From the IMG/VR virus record IMGVR_UViG_3300010376_000114, positions 1 to 26,829 of that record: a stretch of DNA of 26,829 bases; one strand, 5' to 3'. Positions 1,771 through 26,044 of this stretch are shown here, in pieces. A model generated the notes under the pieces. It searched no databases, was not told the origin of the DNA, and saw only the letters and a list, made by a program, of their open reading frames with translations. Source of the DNA: a virus. Lineage: Duplodnaviria; Caudoviricetes. The position numbers were made by a program, and so were the translations under genes. The first letter of the stretch is position 1. The number at the start of each line of letters is the position of its first letter.

Positions 1771-1955
1771 GGCTCTCCGATTACGTCATCGGCGCGATGA
1801 TTGGACTTGTGATGCTGATGCTGGTATTCACCTTCACCGCCGAAGTCCACTTCGTCCTGAAATACTGGAACTATGAGCCTCCTGGAGCAGGTTCGTCAGA
1901 TACCGCCCGCGCGCGCCGCCCCCTTTCCGCGCGCGAGGTTTCTGGAGTTCCTTAA
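1767..1955 (+). CDS. Small single-TM protein
   Basis: ATGA overlap with upstream gene, RBS GAGGAG, hydrophobic VIGAMIGLVMLMLVFTF; 3' end overlaps TerL by 83 nt. Confidence 0.55.
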   Translation: MRLSDYVIGAMIGLVMLMLVFTFTAEVHFVLKYWNYEPPGAGSSDTARARRPLSAREVSGVP

Positions 1956-3714
1956 GGTCCTGCGCATCCAGACCAAGGACTTCGGCATGGTGTCGATGGC
2001 CGACAACATGCTGGGCACCCAGACCTATGTGCTCGATCAGCTGTGCGAAGGCATCGAGCGTGGGATCACCAAGTTCCTGATCCTCAAGGCCCGCCAGCTG
2101 GGCATGACCACGTTCTTCATCGCGCTCGACCTGTTCTGGGCGATGGAGCACGCTGGTCTGCTCGGCGCCTTCGTCTCCCATACCGATCAGGCCAAGGCGC
2201 TGTTCCGCAACGTCATCAAGGTGTTCTTCTCGCACCTTCCCAAGTCCCACAAGATCAAATGGGATTTGGAAAATCGCGAGATGATCGTGCTCAAGAACGG
2301 GTCGGTGCTGCAATATCTGGTGGCCGGCACCAAGGAGAAGGCCAAGGGCGGGCTGGGGCGATCCTCGGCCAACAACTTTTTACATAAGACCGAGGTGGCG
2401 TTCTGGGGCTCGCCCGATGATCTCAACGAGATCAGCGCCACCATGTCGAAACTCTACCCGCACCGGCTCGATATCGAGGAGACGACCGCCAATGGCTTCA
2501 ACTTCTGGGAGGAGCGCTGGCGCGACGGCAAGGACGATCCCACCATCGCCTGCATCTTCGTCGGCTGGTGGCGTCATGACCATTATACGCTTGCTGATGA
2601 CCACCCGTGGTTCCCCCTCTACATGCCCAAGGGGCACGCGACGCCTCTCACGCGCCTGGAGCGCTCTCGAATGCTGGCGGTGCAGAAGCGCTATGGCGTC
2701 ACCGTCACGCACAACCAGATTGCTTGGTATCGCCACCACCTGGAGTCTGAGGTGGGCGGCGATCAGGCGAAGATGGACGAGCAGTTTCCCTGGCTGGAGG
2801 AGGATGCCTTCGTCGCCACCGGCAGCCAGTTCTTCGTCGCCCAGTTCCTGACCGAGGCGGCCAAGCGGGCGCGCGCGATCCCGTTCATGCCGTTCAAATA
2901 CGAGATGGGCGAGCACTGGTCGCAGACCCAGGTATTCTCGACCCGCGACCAGCGCCGTGCCGAGTTGAAGGTGTGGGAGGAGGCCGATCCCAATGGACGA
3001 TACGTCATCGGATGCGATCCCGCCTATGGAAGCTCTGAAACAGCAGACAGAGCGGTTATCAATGTCTCTCGATGCTTTAGCGACAGACTTGTCCAAGTTG
3101 CGGAGTTTGTTAGCCCAACCGTCTCCACCTATCAATGCGCGTGGGCGCTCTGCCACCTCGCTGGCTACTACCGCAATGTCATGGTTAATCTCGAAATCAA
3201 CGGCCCTGGGGAAGCGGTTTTCAACGAAATAAACGCGCTCCGGCGCGAGACCGCCAACATGTGGGACAAGACCGAGGCGCGCAGCTACGACCTGCGCTAC
3301 GTCTTGACCATGATGCGGCATTTCCTCTATGGCCGCTCCGACTCGATGCAGCAGACGCTCGCCTATCAGTGGCGCACCTCCGGCAACAACAAGCCGCCGA
3401 TGCTCTCCTCCTTCAAGGACGCTTTCGAGCTGCACCGGTATCTCCTCAACTCGATGGCGCTCTTGGAGGAGATGAAAACGATCGTGATCGATGGTGGCTC
3501 GATCCAGGCCGAGACCGGCAAAAAGGACGACCGGGTGATGGCTGCCGCGCTCGCGCATGAGGCGTGGCGGCGCTGGCGCCAGCCCGAGCTGGTCGCTCTT
3601 GGCTTGACCTATGCCGAGGCCTATAAGGAGCGGGCCAACAATGCCTCCGCCCAGGCCGAGCGGATGGCGATCAACTACCTGCACGCCATGAAAATCGGGG
3701 TTCCCGGGCAATGA
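1873..3714 (+). CDS. terL: Terminase large subunit
   Basis: Walker A ILKARQLGMTT, Walker B-like FLHKTEVAFW, coupling motif EETTANG, RNase H-like nuclease motifs IGCDPAYG, LEINGPG and KKDDRVMAAALA. Confidence 0.95.
   Translation: MSLLEQVRQIPPARAAPFPRARFLEFLKVLRIQTKDFGMVSMADNMLGTQTYVLDQLCEGIERGITKFLILKARQLGMTTFFIALDLFWAMEHAGLLGAFVSHTDQAKALFRNVIKVFFSHLPKSHKIKWDLENREMIVLKNGSVLQYLVAGTKEKAKGGLGRSSANNFLHKTEVAFWGSPDDLNEISATMSKLYPHRLDIEETTANGFNFWEERWRDGKDDPTIACIFVGWWRHDHYTLADDHPWFPLYMPKGHATPLTRLERSRMLAVQKRYGVTVTHNQIAWYRHHLESEVGGDQAKMDEQFPWLEEDAFVATGSQFFVAQFLTEAAKRARAIPFMPFKYEMGEHWSQTQVFSTRDQRRAELKVWEEADPNGRYVIGCDPAYGSSETADRAVINVSRCFSDRLVQVAEFVSPTVSTYQCAWALCHLAGYYRNVMVNLEINGPGEAVFNEINALRRETANMWDKTEARSYDLRYVLTMMRHFLYGRSDSMQQTLAYQWRTSGNNKPPMLSSFKDAFELHRYLLNSMALLEEMKTIVIDGGSIQAETGKKDDRVMAAALAHEAWRRWRQPELVALGLTYAEAYKERANNASAQAERMAINYLHAMKIGVPGQ
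2993..3232 (+). CDS. Candidate overprinted gene (+1 frame inside terL), 79 aa, coiled-coil-like
   Basis: AGGAGG at 2978-2983, 9 nt before ATG 2993; terL third-position GC drops over this interval; heptad-like MEALKQQTERLSMSLDALATDLSKLRSLL. Confidence 0.5.
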   Translation: MDDTSSDAIPPMEALKQQTERLSMSLDALATDLSKLRSLLAQPSPPINARGRSATSLATTAMSWLISKSTALGKRFSTK

Positions 3715-4168: not shown

Positions 4169-4510
4169 TTGACGCATGATGAAGTAGTCAGGTGGTTTCG
4201 TAGGTTCAAGCACGATCCGGCGTTCCGCAACGAGCGCGGAGCCCGCACTGTCCCGATCGCCAATCTTGCCGAGTGGGCTGGCATCCCGCGCGCCAACCTC
4301 TATGAGATTTTGCGCGGCAAGCTCGGCATCTCCAGGAACTATCACGACCGGCTGGTGGCGGCGATCGACGCCGTCAAGGCGGGGCTGCGCTGGCAGCGCA
4401 AGGGCGGCCGCTGGCAGGTCACCGATCCCTCGTTCGAGCGCCTGCCGCGCCACGTGCATCCCTATCCGCGCAATGGCCGGCTCGCCGATCGCCGGGAGGC
4501 GCAGTCGTGA
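4169..4510 (+). CDS. Cro/XRE-like helix-turn-helix protein
   Basis: Probable TTG start at 4169 after GGGGGG; VPIANLAEWAGIPRANLYEILRG fits the HTH pattern; GTGA overlap with the next gene. Confidence 0.65.
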   Translation: MTHDEVVRWFRRFKHDPAFRNERGARTVPIANLAEWAGIPRANLYEILRGKLGISRNYHDRLVAAIDAVKAGLRWQRKGGRWQVTDPSFERLPRHVHPYPRNGRLADRREAQS

Positions 4511-4992
4511 TCGTCAAGACCTGGGCCTGCCTCAATCGCAACTGCCTCAAGGTCTACGACTCGACCGCAGGCGAGTTCCCGCCCTGCCCGCGCTGCGGCA
4601 TGATCCGGGTGAAGTGGGTGCCGCGGCCGGTGGCGATCAAGAGCGAGCGCACCAAGCAGATCGATGCCACGGTCAAGGAGTTGAAGGAGACCTATGGGTA
4701 TAAAAATTACCGTTCTCCGGTACGCGGTCAAGCTGCCGCCGCCACCACCAATCGCCCAGCTGGATCGCGCGCTCAGCGCTTTGTGCCCAAGGGGTATGAA
4801 GGGTGGGGCGCCGATGTTCCCCTGGACGCGAATGGTAATTTCACCGCCCACTGTGCGCCGACCGGTGTCACGGCCAAGCTCAAGGTCGAGCAGGGACAGC
4901 GAGCTAGTACGACGCGCGTTGGCGATCGAACGATTGGGGTCGGCGGCAACGTCGAATACTCGCACCGGCCGGCTGGAGGCGTCCCCAAGTGA
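4507..4992 (+). CDS. Zn-ribbon protein (FmdB-like N-terminus)
   Basis: RBS GGGAGG, GTG start; WACLNRNC...CPRCG; coupled to the portal by GTGA. Confidence 0.7.
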   Translation: MIVKTWACLNRNCLKVYDSTAGEFPPCPRCGMIRVKWVPRPVAIKSERTKQIDATVKELKETYGYKNYRSPVRGQAAAATTNRPAGSRAQRFVPKGYEGWGADVPLDANGNFTAHCAPTGVTAKLKVEQGQRASTTRVGDRTIGVGGNVEYSHRPAGGVPK

Positions 4993-6716
4993 TCATCCCG
5001 CGCACCAAAAAGTACCGTGACAACACGATCGACGAGATCGCCGAGCTTTGCCTCGGCAGCAAGCGCGACCGTGAGGAGCTATACCTCATGCGTAAGCGCT
5101 ATTTCCACTTCGGCACTGCCGACTATAACATAGAATGCAAGTACAATCGCCTGCAGGCGCATCTCGATCTGGTCTCCTCCTTCCTGTTCGCGCCCGATCA
5201 CTGCCGCTACAACATCGCCGCCCCGCGCAACGCCGCTGATGCGATCATCGAGCAGATCGAGGCGGTGGCGGACGAGTGGAACGACACCTTCCGCGACTCC
5301 GGCCTTGCCGACCTGTTCGCCGACTCGGTGCTGTGGGCGCTGATCCTCGACTCCACCATCATCAAGCTTGGATGGAATGACGCGCGTGAAGAGTTGTTCG
5401 GGAAAATGATATTCCCGTCCGACTTCGCGGTCTATGACGAGACCGAGCCCGATCTCGACTCGCAGGAAGCCTTCGTCCACACCTACTCTCTCAACTGGGA
5501 CAACGCGGTGCAGCGCCTCAAGCGCGCCGGCAAGATCAAGGAGATCAAGCAGCTGGCCCGCTACCCCGGGCAGTACAGCGAGTTTCGCGACCAGATGCCG
5601 CCGGTGCTGGCCAATATGCTGATCTCGCAGACCGGCGGCCCCAATCTCGCGGGCGCCATGGTCGGCCGGGTGAACGTCGATTTCCAGGCCTATGCCACCT
5701 ATCAGTCGGAGTCGAACAATCCGATGGTGCGTTTCCACGAGGTGTGGGTGTGGGATGACGATACCGACGACTACGCGATCTTCACCAAGGCCGACGGGGT
5801 GGATGGGGTCCTTTCCGACAGTCGCGAAACCATCGATGCCATGCGCAAGGCCGACGAGGCGCGCGCTTCCGAGCTTTATCGGGGCTCCTCCAACCTGTTC
5901 GGGATCGAGCAGGAGCACCCGTTCGTCCACGTGTGCCCCTATCGGCTGCATGATTTCTTCTGGGGCAAGGCTCACCTTGACATTTTGATACCGCTGCAGG
6001 TGTGGACCAACGAGCGCCTGCAGCAGATCGCCGACCTACTGGAGCAGAATGTTGATCCGACCAAGATCGGATCGGGCTTCATGGGGCTCACCGATGAGAA
6101 AATGGACGCGCTCGGCGGCGCCGGGAGCTTCGTCTACGACATGATCCCGGGCGCCAAGGTTGAGTTCGAGCGGCCGCCGGTGGTTCCCGACCTGTTTGCC
6201 GAGTTCAAGGAGATCGGTACGATCTTTTTGGAGGCCTCCGGCCTCACCGAGACCATCATGGGGCGCGGCGAACAGGGTATTCGCAGCGAAAAACAGGGCA
6301 AAAGAGCGGTCGCGACCGGCTCGGGACGGCTGCGCAAGGTCGCGGTCGGGCTGGAGGCACCTCTGGTGAAGATCGGCGATGTCGGATTGAAGCTCCTGCA
6401 GCGTAACTCCAAGGAGCGGCTGATCACCGACAGCGGCGCTTTGATGGTCCCAGCCCAGCTGGCGGAGCAGAAAATCAAGATGCGGGTCTCTGGTCACTCG
6501 CATTCTCCGCTGTTTGCCGACGAGGCCAAGGAGATGGCGGCTGGTCTGTTCAAGACCCAGGCGATCGACCGCTTCAGCCTGCTCGACATGACCGATCCGC
6601 CCAACAAGGACGAACTCAAGCACCGTCTGAAAAAGCGCGTAGCGGCGGAAAAGCAGGAGAAGCAGCAGCAGGCCGCGGCGCCAACCAAGCCTTCGCGGCC
6701 GCGCGCCGCTGCCTGA
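4989..6716 (+). CDS. Portal protein
   Basis: 575 aa, between TerL and the head genes. Portal-like segments include YNRLQAHLDLVSSFLF, IIKLGW, HPFVHVCPY..FFWGK and EASGLTETIMGRGEQGIRS. Confidence 0.88.
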   Translation: MIIPRTKKYRDNTIDEIAELCLGSKRDREELYLMRKRYFHFGTADYNIECKYNRLQAHLDLVSSFLFAPDHCRYNIAAPRNAADAIIEQIEAVADEWNDTFRDSGLADLFADSVLWALILDSTIIKLGWNDAREELFGKMIFPSDFAVYDETEPDLDSQEAFVHTYSLNWDNAVQRLKRAGKIKEIKQLARYPGQYSEFRDQMPPVLANMLISQTGGPNLAGAMVGRVNVDFQAYATYQSESNNPMVRFHEVWVWDDDTDDYAIFTKADGVDGVLSDSRETIDAMRKADEARASELYRGSSNLFGIEQEHPFVHVCPYRLHDFFWGKAHLDILIPLQVWTNERLQQIADLLEQNVDPTKIGSGFMGLTDEKMDALGGAGSFVYDMIPGAKVEFERPPVVPDLFAEFKEIGTIFLEASGLTETIMGRGEQGIRSEKQGKRAVATGSGRLRKVAVGLEAPLVKIGDVGLKLLQRNSKERLITDSGALMVPAQLAEQKIKMRVSGHSHSPLFADEAKEMAAGLFKTQAIDRFSLLDMTDPPNKDELKHRLKKRVAAEKQEKQQQAAAPTKPSRPRAAA

Positions 6717-7382: not shown

Positions 7383-7579
7383 TGCCCGAGTCAACTTATC
7401 TCAAGCCGAAGGTTGCTTCCGGCAGCATGGGCGAGCGCAAGAAAAAGAACGGCATGTTCCAGAACATCCCGTCCTACCCGCAGCTGGGTGGATTTTCCAG
7501 CTCCTCCAAGGTGCCGGAGCGCGATCGGCCGATGGCGCTGGAGAAGGGCGATCTGGTGCGCAAGGGCAAGCCGGTGTGA
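7382..7579 (+). CDS. Small basic head-region protein (65 aa)
   Basis: RBS AGGAGG at about 7370-7375, TGATG overlap (alternative GTG 7379); Lys/Arg-rich. Confidence 0.75.
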   Translation: MPESTYLKPKVASGSMGERKKKNGMFQNIPSYPQLGGFSSSSKVPERDRPMALEKGDLVRKGKPV

Positions 7580-14977: not shown

Positions 14978-16670
14978 CTGGCTCGATGATCCGCTGCCGT
15001 TTTGGTTTCTGTGCTCCGCCGATGATGACGGCGACGATGATGGTGGGGGCGGCAGCTCTGACGATGACGGCGGAACGGACGGCGGCGGTAAGGATACAGG
15101 TGGTACCGACGCGGGAGGCGGTGACACCGGCGGCTCCTCCGATCCCGGTGGTGGTGATGCCGGCACCGACACGACCGATACCGGTGACACCTCGTCAGAG
15201 ACAGAGAAGGGCGACCAGAGCAGCACCAAGGGCGAGCAGACCAGCGGCTTCGGCGGCGACACAGGTAAAGACACCTCACCTGCGGCTGGTGACCGCGGCG
15301 AGCAGACCAGCGGCTTTTCCGGCAGCGACACCGCTGGTGCGGCGAGTTCGGAAACCGACAAGGGGGATCGCGGCGATACCGGCGCTCAGACCGGCGGGGT
15401 CGGCGGCGGTGGCGCCACTGATGATACTTCTCACGGTTTGGTCACCGACTCGGCACGCAGCGCGCTCGACAACGCCGGCATCGGCGATCTCGGGCCGGCG
15501 GTCGGCACCGCCTCGCCGGCATCGGCCGCAAGCGCGCAAGGCGTCGGTACCGGCGGCTTCTCCAGCGCCGCCGAAATCCTGGCGGGAGCAACGCCAAGCG
15601 TCGAGGCGTTGACAGCCAACCCGCCCGATACACCGACCGACGTGACCGACACGCCGGCCGAGGACCCGTTCGGGCAGCTGTCTGGCGGCACCCCTGGCGC
15701 ACCGACCGGCACGGTGCAGACCGAGCGGATCACGGCTCCAGGAGGCGACCAAAATCTCGCGGCTCCGCAGCCGGCCGGCGGTACAAACACAACCACGGTT
15801 GCGGAAACCCCGCTGCAGGATATCAGCGTTGCCCCCACGATAACTCCGGAGAACTTCCCGGAGGCGCAGCCGCTCATTGACCCTTCTCAATTTACTGATC
15901 CAACTTTCAGGCCGCCGACACAAGGTCAGGACAATAGTGTAAATTTCCCGGCCCCGGGTCAGGCCCCCGGCGGGCAGACCATCAACTTCCCGGGACCCTC
16001 GCCTTCGCCGGAAACAGTGGTGGTCACAACTCCGGCCAGCGCTGCTGCGCAGCAGACAACCCCTGCTCCCGGTACTACGACGCCGGCCGCCACCACCACC
16101 CCTACGGACACGTTCAGGACCGCCAAGCCTCCAGGAGAAATCGACAACACCCCGGGAGCGAAAGCGACTATTGATGCGATCAACAATAACCAGCCGGCCC
16201 CAGGAGAAACGACCCCCTCGCCGATCAGTGGCAACAATGCGCCGTCCGGTCCGGCCCCTGATGGAATATCCGATGGCGCCACCCAGGCCCTCAACAACGC
16301 TTCCACGAGTGGGGGCGGTGCCGCTCTTCCTACCGGCCCGCAGATCACCGCTGAGTCGTTGATCAACCCGATCCCGGCTGACGGCACGACGCCTAACCCG
16401 GCTCCGGATGGGGTGACGGTAGGCGGGCTTCCTGACCCTGGATCGTTTCCCGGTCCAGGCGGCACCCCTTTGGGATATTTCGACGCCCAGGGGTTCTTCA
16501 ACCCGATCCAGATGGGCGGGGCGGTGCCCCCCGGCGGCGTTCAAATCCCCGGCTTCACCCGGCAGGTTGGTAACCCGCAGCAGCAGGGTGACGGTGCCGC
16601 GCCGCTGGGATATCAGAACGTGCTCAACAACGCGATCGACACCGGGGTCGGTGACGGGGGAACAGCCTGA
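14964..16670 (+). CDS. Highly acidic, intrinsically disordered putative internal virion/ejection protein
   Basis: RBS AAGGA; short aromatic N-terminus then D/G/T/S/P-rich low complexity; first gene after the GNAT in a typical ejection-protein block. Confidence 0.7.
   Translation: MRARDWLDDPLPFWFLCSADDDGDDDGGGGSSDDDGGTDGGGKDTGGTDAGGGDTGGSSDPGGGDAGTDTTDTGDTSSETEKGDQSSTKGEQTSGFGGDTGKDTSPAAGDRGEQTSGFSGSDTAGAASSETDKGDRGDTGAQTGGVGGGGATDDTSHGLVTDSARSALDNAGIGDLGPAVGTASPASAASAQGVGTGGFSSAAEILAGATPSVEALTANPPDTPTDVTDTPAEDPFGQLSGGTPGAPTGTVQTERITAPGGDQNLAAPQPAGGTNTTTVAETPLQDISVAPTITPENFPEAQPLIDPSQFTDPTFRPPTQGQDNSVNFPAPGQAPGGQTINFPGPSPSPETVVVTTPASAAAQQTTPAPGTTTPAATTTPTDTFRTAKPPGEIDNTPGAKATIDAINNNQPAPGETTPSPISGNNAPSGPAPDGISDGATQALNNASTSGGGAALPTGPQITAESLINPIPADGTTPNPAPDGVTVGGLPDPGSFPGPGGTPLGYFDAQGFFNPIQMGGAVPPGGVQIPGFTRQVGNPQQQGDGAAPLGYQNVLNNAIDTGVGDGGTA
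15231..15316 (+). repeat. 20-nt exact direct repeat (GGCGAGCAGACCAGCGGCTT) at 15231-15250 and 15297-15316, encoding GEQTSGF
   Basis: Read directly from the sequence; internal duplication in the low-complexity protein. Confidence 0.85.
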
Positions 16671-18070
16671 TGGGTATCGGGATCGGTACTGAGGCACTGA
16701 TCGGCGCGCTGTTCGGCGGTGGCGAGGTAGCGGCCGACCTTGGCATAGCTGGCGCCGATCTCGGACTTGATGCTGCCGCTGCTGGTGCCACCGATCTTGC
16801 CGGCGCCGGAGCGATTGATGCCGCAGGGGCGGGAGCGGAAGCAATTGATGCCGCCGCAGCCGGAGGTGCTGTGGATGCCGCCGGCACGGGCGCTGCGGAG
16901 GCCGGCGCGATCGATACCGGGCTCACTGCTGCCGATGCGGCAGGCGCGGCGGGCGCTGCTGGTGCGGTTGACACACTCGCGCCTCAGAGCGCTACCCAGG
17001 CGCTTAACTTCGCTTCTGCCGCTCCTGGTGCCACCTCCACCGGTGCCACCGGAGCGCTGAACGGCGCCAATCTCGCCAGCATTGGGGAAGGGAGCGCCAA
17101 CGTTGCCTCGCTGCCGAGCTTTCAGTCGGCGTCCACCGAGCTTGCCTCCGGCAACCCGACGCTTGCGGCTGAACTCGGTCAGCTGCCGCCGGCCAATCTC
17201 AATACCGGACCAAGCGCGATCGAGGCGGTGGGCGGTTCTTCCACGCCGCTGGACATCGCCAATCTTGCCGCCGACCCCACGGCTGCGCCCGCGGCCGGGC
17301 AGGTAGCGCCGCAGAGCGCTGCCGACGCGCTCAACGGAGCCGGAGTGGCTCCCGATCGGCCGATCTTCAACAACGGCGTCGAGACCGGCATCCCCGGTGT
17401 CGGCCCGACCGCGCAGCCAGACACCGGCGGTCTTTCCGCCGGGGTGTCTAACTTCCTCAACAGTCCTTATACCAAGGCCGCCGAGCTGGCGCTGCCGGTG
17501 GGCTTCCTCGGCTATAATCTTCTCAAGGGCCCGCCGCCTCTGCCGTCGCAGGCAACTGCGGCGGTAGAGAACGCCAAGGCGAGCATCGGTCCCCTGCAGG
17601 GGCAGGCAACCCAGAATGTCCCGCTGTTCAATCAAACAGCGGCGCAGGACCTGAGCCTCGCCAATAACTTTCAGATCAGCCCGGCGCAGGCAGCCTCGAT
17701 CCAGATTTTTGTGCAGAACGCGCAAAATCAACTGCGCCAGCAGATCGCCAACCAGGGAAACCAGAACGTCGAGGCGACCAGCGAATGGGCCCAGGGCAAC
17801 CAGCAAATCCAGCAGCAGGCGCTGTCCATGCAGGTGCAGATGGTCAACCAGCTGATATCGACCGCGTTCCAGGCGGCCTCCGCCGCCAATGCCGGGGTCT
17901 CGACCGCGGTCAACGCCACCTCATCGCTCGACTCAACCTTGATGCAGGCGGCGCAAATCCAGGTGCAGCAGGACACGGCATTTCAGCAGTCGATCACCGG
18001 GGCACTGCAATCCTTCGGCATGCTCGCGGCTTTGAGTAATCTCAAGGTGACCGGCGCAACCCAGGTCTGA
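16670..18070 (+). CDS. Ala/Gly-rich, Gln-rich putative ejection/pilot protein
   Basis: TGATG coupling; hydrophobic Gly-rich N-terminus, DAAG repeats, Q-rich helical C-terminus; almost no basic residues. Confidence 0.72.
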   Translation: MGIGIGTEALIGALFGGGEVAADLGIAGADLGLDAAAAGATDLAGAGAIDAAGAGAEAIDAAAAGGAVDAAGTGAAEAGAIDTGLTAADAAGAAGAAGAVDTLAPQSATQALNFASAAPGATSTGATGALNGANLASIGEGSANVASLPSFQSASTELASGNPTLAAELGQLPPANLNTGPSAIEAVGGSSTPLDIANLAADPTAAPAAGQVAPQSAADALNGAGVAPDRPIFNNGVETGIPGVGPTAQPDTGGLSAGVSNFLNSPYTKAAELALPVGFLGYNLLKGPPPLPSQATAAVENAKASIGPLQGQATQNVPLFNQTAAQDLSLANNFQISPAQAASIQIFVQNAQNQLRQQIANQGNQNVEATSEWAQGNQQIQQQALSMQVQMVNQLISTAFQAASAANAGVSTAVNATSSLDSTLMQAAQIQVQQDTAFQQSITGALQSFGMLAALSNLKVTGATQV

Positions 18071-25004: not shown

Positions 25005-26044
25005 GGGAAGTCCTCTTGGTCGGCTACGGCCTGCGCGGCGATCTCAGCGTCGGCCATCTCCATGCGCTTTTTCAGATCGCTTTCCAGCCCACGGATGATG
25101 GTGCGGCCGTTCTCATCGCTGGAAAAGCGCCGCCAGAAGGTCTGGAAGATCGCCGAGCCGCGATCGGCGGCCTCGCGCGCCTCCGCTTCAAGCGCGGCAA
25201 TCTGAGCGATTGAGCGCTTGCCGGCGGGCTTTGCTGGCGGTTTGGGCTGTGGGCGCTTGAGCGCCTCCGGGATCGGCCCCGGGTCGCCGGGCTCGTCCGG
25301 TGGCGGGCTACGCTCAGTCACGATCTCCACCGGGGGCATCGGCGGCGCGTGCTCGATCACCGGACGCATGACGTCAGGCGCAGCCACCGGCTTGTGCTCG
25401 GCCGCCTCCTCTTCCGGCATCTCCTCCTCACTCAAGAGCCCGGAGAGTTCCTGCGGGAAGGCGCGCCGCAGCGCCAATGCCTCTGCGCACTTGGCAATCA
25501 TCAGCGGCCCCATGCGCAGCCAGCTGCGGGTGAGATCGCCCTTGCTGGACTTCTGCGCATAGGTTTCCCAGTCGGCGACCGACCAGAGCGGCTCCTTGAA
25601 GTCGGAGCGCAGCACGCCAATCTTGGCGGCGATCGGGTGGTCGAACTGCTTCTCCGGCAGCCACAGGTCCTGCCAGCCGGTGTTCTTGCCATACCAGAAC
25701 GGCCCCAGCTGCCCGGCATATTTGCCGGTTCGCTCGGCGATCAACCGGAACCCATCGATCCCGGTCTGGATCGTCATCGCCCGCACGTCCTTCCACTTCC
25801 CGGTGGCCGGATCGCGCACCGACGCCCAGCGGAACACACAGTAGATTTGCTTGGCCAGAGGATCGAGCCCGGTGCGGCGGCAGTGGTATAAAAACAGCGC
25901 AAGCTCGTCGTCACTGGCGCCCGCCGCCACCTGTGACTTGATCAGCAGGACCTGATCGTTTGTGAAGTTGATAACCGACCGCCCGGGGGTCGCTGCTGGG
26001 TTTTGATGCACCACGGGCAAATCGTCGGACAATGGATAAGACAT
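25001..26044 (-). CDS. bet: Phage single-strand annealing recombinase, Bet/RecT family
   Basis: ASDDELALFLYHCRRTGLDPLAKQIY, TIQTGIDGFRLIAERTGKYAG and MIAKCAEALALRRAFPQELSGL..EEM are hallmark Bet motifs; RBS GGAGGGAGAGG before ATG 26044. Confidence 0.93.
   Translation of the reverse strand: MSYPLSDDLPVVHQNPAATPGRSVINFTNDQVLLIKSQVAAGASDDELALFLYHCRRTGLDPLAKQIYCVFRWASVRDPATGKWKDVRAMTIQTGIDGFRLIAERTGKYAGQLGPFWYGKNTGWQDLWLPEKQFDHPIAAKIGVLRSDFKEPLWSVADWETYAQKSSKGDLTRSWLRMGPLMIAKCAEALALRRAFPQELSGLLSEEEMPEEEAAEHKPVAAPDVMRPVIEHAPPMPPVEIVTERSPPPDEPGDPGPIPEALKRPQPKPPAKPAGKRSIAQIAALEAEAREAADRGSAIFQTFWRRFSSDENGRTIIRGLESDLKKRMEMADAEIAAQAVADQEDFP

Follow-up and report, generated by a model that had tools for sequence, protein, structure and literature searches.

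Does the terminase gene of this phage hide a second gene in its +1 frame? The window (the whole stretch of 26,829 nucleotides that we analysed, from IMG/VR record IMGVR_UViG_3300010376_000114) has 63% GC and is the late region of an uncultured phage. The late genes run in the order endolysin, small genes, terL, small zinc-finger and HTH-like genes, a probable portal gene, and the major head and virion genes. A RecT-like gene lies in the same window, on the strand opposite to the late genes. The original prediction, made from the letters alone, was that a translated coiled-coil protein of 79 amino acids is encoded within the nuclease-coding part of terL. The features that bear on this question are as follows.

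1873..3714, + strand: terL, terminase large subunit, 613 amino acids, the host frame (phrog_2, E = 1e-15)
2966..2968, + strand: last +1 stop (TGA) upstream of the hidden ORF; 26 of the 57 relatives with an open frame have a stop at the same codon
2978..2983, + strand: Shine-Dalgarno (SD) sequence AGGAGG, built from codons of the conserved W-E-E motif of TerL, with a 9-nt spacer to the ATG
2993..3232, + strand: putative overprinted +1-frame ORF, 79 amino acids, terL codons 374-453, from ATG (2993-2995) to TAA (3230-3232)
3016..3195, + strand: TerL nuclease motifs beneath the hidden ORF, from D382 of CDPAYG to E441 of LEING (Terminase_6C matches weakly from residue 379 onwards; T4 gp17 can be aligned colinearly, though weakly)
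3023..3115, + strand: residues 11-41 of the hidden product, a predicted helix with four leucine heptads (AlphaFold2, heptad score, Pfam)
3181..3232, + strand: lineage-specific C-terminal extension of the hidden ORF; 42 of the 57 open relatives have stopped by codon 442, most of them at 433-442

The TerL profile also matches the T4 gp17 structures 3ezk and 3cpe (E about 1e-5), and we take the residues in the region from D382 to E441 to be the catalytic residues of the nuclease. An endolysin gene precedes terL by at most 1.2 kb. Searches of the PHROG and Pfam families recognised no small terminase near terL. Among annotated phage records, the best match has 41% identity, and we found no cultured close relative. 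Two contigs from metagenome-assembled genomes hold relatives, and the ORF is absent from both. DNA contigs from runs X1 and X2 span the ORF with 1-2 letters different, so the ORF is not an assembly artefact.

A patch of A/T-ending codons in terL

Codons ending in A or T make up 49/316 of terL at 1873-2820, 4/57 at 2821-2991, 25/48 at 2995-3138, 10/31 at 3139-3232, and 20/160 at 3235-3714. The hand counts behind the original prediction (before the ATG, from 2995, and after 3232) were thus exact, and so was its placing of the AGGAGG 9 nt before the ATG and of the TAA. Codon positions one and two have no A/T shift in the patch. If 72/533 is taken as the terL background, codons 374-422 have a binomial p of 6e-11 and codons 423-453 one of 0.006, for a stretch that was picked post hoc. 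An unguided best-segment fit placed the A/T-rich segment at terL codons 372-453, which agrees with the claim that the shift is bounded by the ORF (codons 374-453).

Against a window-wide background (0.23), the terL patch has a log-likelihood ratio of 11.4; 3 of 30 other ORFs have a higher patch and one has a nearly equal patch. The chance that the +1 frame would be open in the studied sequence alone is p = 0.16. A scan for sigma-70-like promoters for the hidden ORF gave 0 sites, and the RNA structure around the ORF start is unremarkable. A single genome is suggestive only and does not prove a hidden gene: it is the relatives that carry the case.

Stop codons are depleted in the +1 frame of relatives

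We fetched 319 loci, of which 314 spanned the region, and collapsed these to 146 sequences (the window included). Grouped by regional A/T excess, 62 were shifted, 30 were intermediate, and 54 were unshifted. The 62 shifted sequences contain 5 stops in the +1 frame, where 83.9 would be expected given the codon use of each gene, and 57 of them have open frames (14.9 expected). The 54 unshifted sequences contain 56 stops (75.3 expected). When we regrouped the sequences without using the stop-capable codons, we found 7 stops instead of 83.9, so the result is not circular. Across all 146 sequences, +1 stops in codons 371-430 are at 0.40-0.46 of expectation, which is the minimum for the gene; in the four other frames the ratio is 0.80-1.46.

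The avoidance can be seen in individual codon choices. Codons for valine and leucine shun the choices that would make a +1 stop (xTA+A, 0/101; xTG+A, 2/101; xTA+G, 3/240), while the harmless choice xTA+T is used freely (26/80). Similarly, sites with a risk of a stop are used in 5/341 cases in the ORF tile, and the nine other tiles range from 26/194 to 94/297. These patterns support the view that selection maintains an open +1 gene, with a start of its own, in the terL family, as had been predicted.

The hidden ORF is narrower in its distribution than terL: 57 of the 146 sequences are open and shifted, 54 lack the shift, and 35 are either intermediate or shifted with a stop. Among the 26 relatives with at least 60% identity, 22 are open and 20 are shifted. 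The original prediction counted close homologues with +1 stops or without the ATG as evidence against it. L012 and L346 (the latter from outside the set of 146) are such homologues, but both the start and the codon shift are absent from them, and this strengthens the connection of the shift with the ORF. Together with L007, they are close relatives that manage without the shift or without the ORF.

Start and stop of the hidden ORF

An ATG or GTG behind an SD match of at least 4 nt is found at codons 349-377 in 36 of the 57 open-and-shifted relatives, but in just 2 of the 54 unshifted ones. This is in line with the predicted conservation of ribosome binding site and start codon, although 21 of the 57 open relatives are missing an SD plus start within these codons. 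Where ATG and ACG differ by one silent choice behind the SD, ATG is chosen in 28/33 versus 1/9 cases; further inside the ORF it is chosen in 75/170. We set aside the SD energies (median -9.8 vs -3.3) because the starts had been chosen by that energy.

Both ends of the ORF move. The start codon varies by lineage (codons 350, 353, 359, 362, 370, 372, and 374), and the stop lies anywhere from terL codon 433 to 478. The A/T excess at codons 439-449 has an observed/expected ratio of 1.31 in the 15 sequences with a late stop and 0.86 in the 31 sequences with an early stop (p = 0.008). An equivalent comparison for the 5' boundary is not significant (p = 0.11).

These counts of stops, starts, and boundaries treat the relatives as independent. 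In a tree-based control with 13 independent pairs, shift and open frame differed in the same direction in 6.8 pairs, in opposite directions in 0.6, and did not differ in 5.6 (median p = 0.039, range 0.004-0.45 over pairings).

The avoidance of stops, the start signals, and a shift that ends at each lineage's own stop make it very probable, from comparison of sequences, that an overprinted gene is translated within terL. In the claim of a 79-amino-acid coiled-coil gene, the open +1 frame under selection and its own start have stood up, but the length and the coiled coil are specific to the lineage.

Silent sites and turnover

If the ORF constrains terL, synonymous sites might be conserved beneath it, and the original prediction proposed looking for this. 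We found the reverse: silent divergence of terL in 24 pairs is 0.46 under the ORF versus 0.34 outside it, an excess that 17 unshifted pairs do not have. After correction for composition and saturation, 16 of the 24 pairs are higher inside the ORF (p = 0.018). Across clades, silent identity under the ORF is not raised (0.05-0.09 vs 0.11 elsewhere), and the silent sites under the ORF share no motif. Reduced synonymous variation is usual for overprinted genes, but it need not be seen if the product changes fast. There is modest sequence support for such fast change. We had considered strong positive selection on the ORF, but among the ten tiles of terL, the one with the ORF diverged most in only 3 of 17 close pairs, so we toned this down.

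Close pairs can have nearly identical products (L003/L006 and L080/L279), and very different, near-saturated alleles are found on nearly identical TerL proteins (L030/L046, L086/L089, and L293/L295). The latter suggests allele exchange. On the tree, the shift or the ORF changes state 12-13 times, a count that does not distinguish gains from losses. A survey of flanking genes, with crude ORF calls and short flanks, gave no clear sign of a gene that replaces the lost ORF.

The residues of TerL are more conserved beneath the ORF and those of the +1 product are not; in the relatives compared, the product has no conserved residues beyond those imposed by TerL. Within the patch, the nearest neighbours belong to the same clade. 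Given these neighbours and the greater conservation of TerL there, a low-GC donor for the patch seems unlikely. Recombination with a lower-GC phage, which had been named as a way to explain the patch away, also fits poorly with a shift of third positions only.

We tentatively suggest that the start of the nuclease domain might be a recurrent nursery for genes in this phage family. The W-E-E codons give an SD sequence and one silent change gives an ATG, so unrelated small proteins (a coiled coil, a single amphipathic helix, or a protein with two membrane helices) could arise, be exchanged, and disappear again and again on the same 60 codons in different lineages, and some of them might shield TerL from terminase-directed defences. 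The ORF is present in about 60 natural sequences and absent from about 50, which gives a comparative test bed on one host protein where starts and stops move and the products differ in physical type. The birth, turnover, and loss of overprinted genes can thus be measured in a phage gene that is among the most conserved, and in a case that screens for synonymous conservation would overlook.

The predicted product

In the studied product (which includes the peptide LSMSLDALATDLSK), the heptad pattern runs over residues 15-40, with L15, L22, L29, and L36 at d and T19, L26, L33, and L40 at a. At most 1 in 2,000 stop-free recodings of equal base make-up matches its score, so the leucine heptads that had been noticed by eye are beyond chance. 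AlphaFold2 predicts one confident helix of 31 residues (11-41; pLDDT about 80) and a weak second helix, with a pTM of 0.27, and a Pfam coiled-coil match is below threshold (E = 0.0013). As a prediction only, four heptads with apolar a and d positions in a continuous helix describe a leucine zipper or coiled coil.

A coiled coil scores above chance in only 10 of the 57 open relatives (including L003, L006, and L023). A large clade has a helix that begins L-T-E-A-Q, for which the model is confident only at residues 19-30; an HTH reading of this type of product was not supported (mean pLDDT of 52.7). Hydrophobic stretches of 19 residues are present in 7 of the 57, and five of these have two stretches (L030, L072, L157, L231, and L253), but hydrophobicity exceeds the recoding null in only 1 of 57. 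More generally, the amino-acid make-up of the +1 frame moves from rich in Arg, Ser, Ala, and Pro to rich in Leu and Ile.

The studied product has no Cys, lipobox, signal peptide, hydrophobic N-terminus, or membrane stretch. It is not an o-spanin like Rz1, as it lacks the signal peptide and the lipobox Cys, nor a class II holin, as it lacks a transmembrane helix. When compared to small terminases, it had no family match and no fold match, and the models contained just the one confident helix.

We found no homologues of the product with a word index. Family-alignment searches gave 1 match and then, in a further search, 19, of which tblastn placed 17 at terL loci (15 of them in the +1 frame, one as a fusion in the TerL frame, and one in another frame) and left 2 unmapped. 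The ten matches that we looked up are all singletons, and several have the same lineage-specific starts. Gene callers almost never report the ORF, and do so only as singleton calls. Neither the sequence searches nor the family-alignment searches found a stand-alone family. The ESM Atlas had no usable match for the product from the studied phage or from L080, Pfam and PHROG gave only sub-threshold matches to coiled-coil and HTH families, and Foldseek against viral models gave 0/13 matches at E ≤ 0.001.

Possible functions

We propose that ribosomes would initiate at the internal SD and ATG on the late terL mRNA, and that the product would appear along with TerL, translated from the same late mRNA. 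It would be a small helical accessory protein, with the predicted four-heptad coiled coil as its interaction helix in this phage, and it would bind a protein partner in phage-host conflict. The product might counter a system of the host or of a rival element, such as one that senses or blocks the terminase, and nesting in terL would couple both when it is made and how it is inherited to TerL.

We lean towards a translated helical accessory protein that acts via a partner. A role in counter-defence or a similar conflict is speculative, and we regard it as possible rather than probable; we suggest it because dispensability, turnover, and allele diversity are typical of conflict genes and because terminase is a known target. 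According to the available portion of one report, the defence protein KpAvs2 binds TerL (PMC11564622), and the accessible text of another describes terminase interference (terI and its neutralisers, RIP1; PMC12908700). The hidden ORFs thus offer small candidates for proteins that are co-inherited with a known immune trigger. No finding points directly to a partner or to counter-defence, and it is doubtful that all lineages share one function, since the products differ in type. The probability left over from the conflict role and the rivals below belongs to other functions.

If the gene is real, its product might instead modulate TerL or packaging, by recruiting, by damping the nuclease, or by standing in for a small-terminase part. 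Co-expression with TerL is built in, no small terminase was recognised nearby, and, in the part of the GndA report that is available, this out-of-frame microprotein of E. coli relocates the product of its own host gene (10.64898/2026.10.22.760973). But TerL is highly conserved under the ORF and the product is not, the three close relatives named above lack the shift or the ORF, and our crude flank survey tied no neighbouring family to loss of the ORF, so we think modulation unlikely. The products could also be accessories of lysis or of the membrane (like holins, antiholins, or membrane peptides), as the hydrophobic stretches in some relatives, the nearby endolysin gene, and the existence of nested lysis genes such as T7 18.7 in 18.5 might suggest. 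With no such stretch, signal, or lipobox in the studied product and with hydrophobicity that beat the null just once, this is improbable. Somewhere between these two in likelihood, and so also unlikely, is that the act of translation matters (for TerL output or the state of the mRNA) or that this is a weakly selected proto-gene, with the protein sequence incidental. The absence of conserved residues and of silent-site constraint would fit, as would the variable start and stop. However, translation as such would not require a codon shift over the full length to the stop, and neither idea accounts for the move towards Leu and Ile or for a heptad beyond chance in the studied phage.

Two further explanations do without a separate gene product that starts at the ATG. 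The database singleton P0126 (449 amino acids) runs from the TerL ATPase straight into the +1 product, as if a +1 ribosomal frameshift yielded an ATPase-only TerL with a helical tail. We consider this very improbable: P0126 may be an indel error or a pseudogene, ATG is selected at SD distance, in L019 a +1 stop lies two codons ahead of the ATG, and by eye the 57 sequences have no common slippery site. Or there may be no gene, and the patch may be due to chance, to a signal in the DNA or RNA, or to a low-GC segment of foreign origin. Other patches in the window score equally high, the W-E-E codons of TerL provide the SD for free, and the openness of the studied frame could be accidental (p = 0.16). 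Against this, third positions alone shift, the patch's neighbours are from the same clade, and there is neither a shared silent-site motif nor a sigma-70-like promoter. Moreover, a segment, a signal, or chance would not predict the avoidance of stops in a single frame, which leaves the absence of a gene quite improbable. An overprinted gene for a helical protein is still the reading that we prefer.

Comparison with other nested genes

That terL can contain nested ORFs was already known from T7: 19.2 and 19.3 are short ORFs that lie entirely in the +1 frame of gene 19 (NC_001604), as the hidden ORF does in our terL. T7 19.3 resembles it further in having an SD-like site and in lying within the nuclease-coding part (57 amino acids, gp19 codons 395-453). 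But the first nuclease Asp lies 31 codons upstream of the start of 19.3 and 8 codons downstream of the start of the studied ORF, and the host genes cannot be aligned (T7 gp19 did not match the profile of the studied TerL family; E = 0.076). The hidden ORF does not belong to the gp19.2 or gp19.3 families, as its product has no PHROG match and its position differs. We infer that the T7 ORFs had an independent origin (the products were compared by eye).

In the available text of one study (PMC4925675), the annotated ORFs of T7-like phages include 19.2 and 19.3, and the main text of a T7 essentiality screen, in its accessible part, does not mention them (PMC11482910). Within the open main texts of the literature that we searched, we found neither a functional study of 19.2 or 19.3 nor a prior description of the ORF of this terL family. 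Both T7 products are annotated as hypothetical, and so far the nested ORFs in T7's terL are only hypothetical genes in annotation. The present case is of special value for its natural series with and without the ORF, along with the changing product.

Among late genes, an out-of-frame gene with its own start is also found in the nested o-spanin T7 18.7 in 18.5, and lambda's Rz1, which is nested in Rz, is another out-of-frame o-spanin gene. The nested o-spanins lie within the gene for the i-spanin, whereas the studied ORF lies in terL and lacks the signal peptide and lipobox. E. coli's GndA, as described in the available part of its report, is likewise a helical, out-of-frame, internal microprotein in a conserved enzyme gene, gnd (10.64898/2026.10.22.760973). 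Unlike the studied ORF, which is known from sequence alone, GndA is cellular and acts experimentally on the product of its host gene. An overlapping inhibitor gene is antisense, in the portion of the article available (PMC11087260), instead of +1 as here, and the bypassing in a terminase that is outlined in the accessible part of another paper (PMC10732093) is a different phenomenon from a nested ORF.

Other patches and neighbouring genes

A candidate for a second overprint lies at 4694-5020 (+ strand). It is a +1 ORF of 108 amino acids with AAGGAG just upstream, and it lies in the 161-amino-acid zinc-finger gene (4507-4992) and extends into the start of the portal gene. A/T third positions jump at its ATG. 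L043, L030, and L058 have an ATG with a like rise at the same codon, and most of 75 homologues have stops.

Four other patches score like the one in terL (7416-7508, 15876-15944, 16739-17029, and 25487-25852); some may be wrong starts or repeats, and some may be further overlaps. An ORF of 62 amino acids with a hydrophobic stretch near its N-terminus (1767-1955, + strand) overlaps the start of terL by 83 nt, and this overlap is A/T-rich at third positions.

We also noticed variation in and around terL in the relatives. L080, L127, and L180 have an in-frame insert in the ATPase part (about 260 amino acids in L080), with intein-like ends. Directly upstream of terL, 11 of the 146 representatives, mostly from one clade, have a serine-recombinase-like gene (such as L133:989-1504), a label that we presume from a sequence motif. 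In one subclade (L291, L140, L295, L092, L085, L218, L091, L087, L297, L300, and L152), the portal-like gene that follows terL is encoded on the other strand, which is an unusual inversion. Finally, terL codons 146-175 (about 2308-2397) have a milder, family-wide A/T excess (O/E of 1.19) without an equal depletion of +1 stops, and this is perhaps a DNA or RNA signal.
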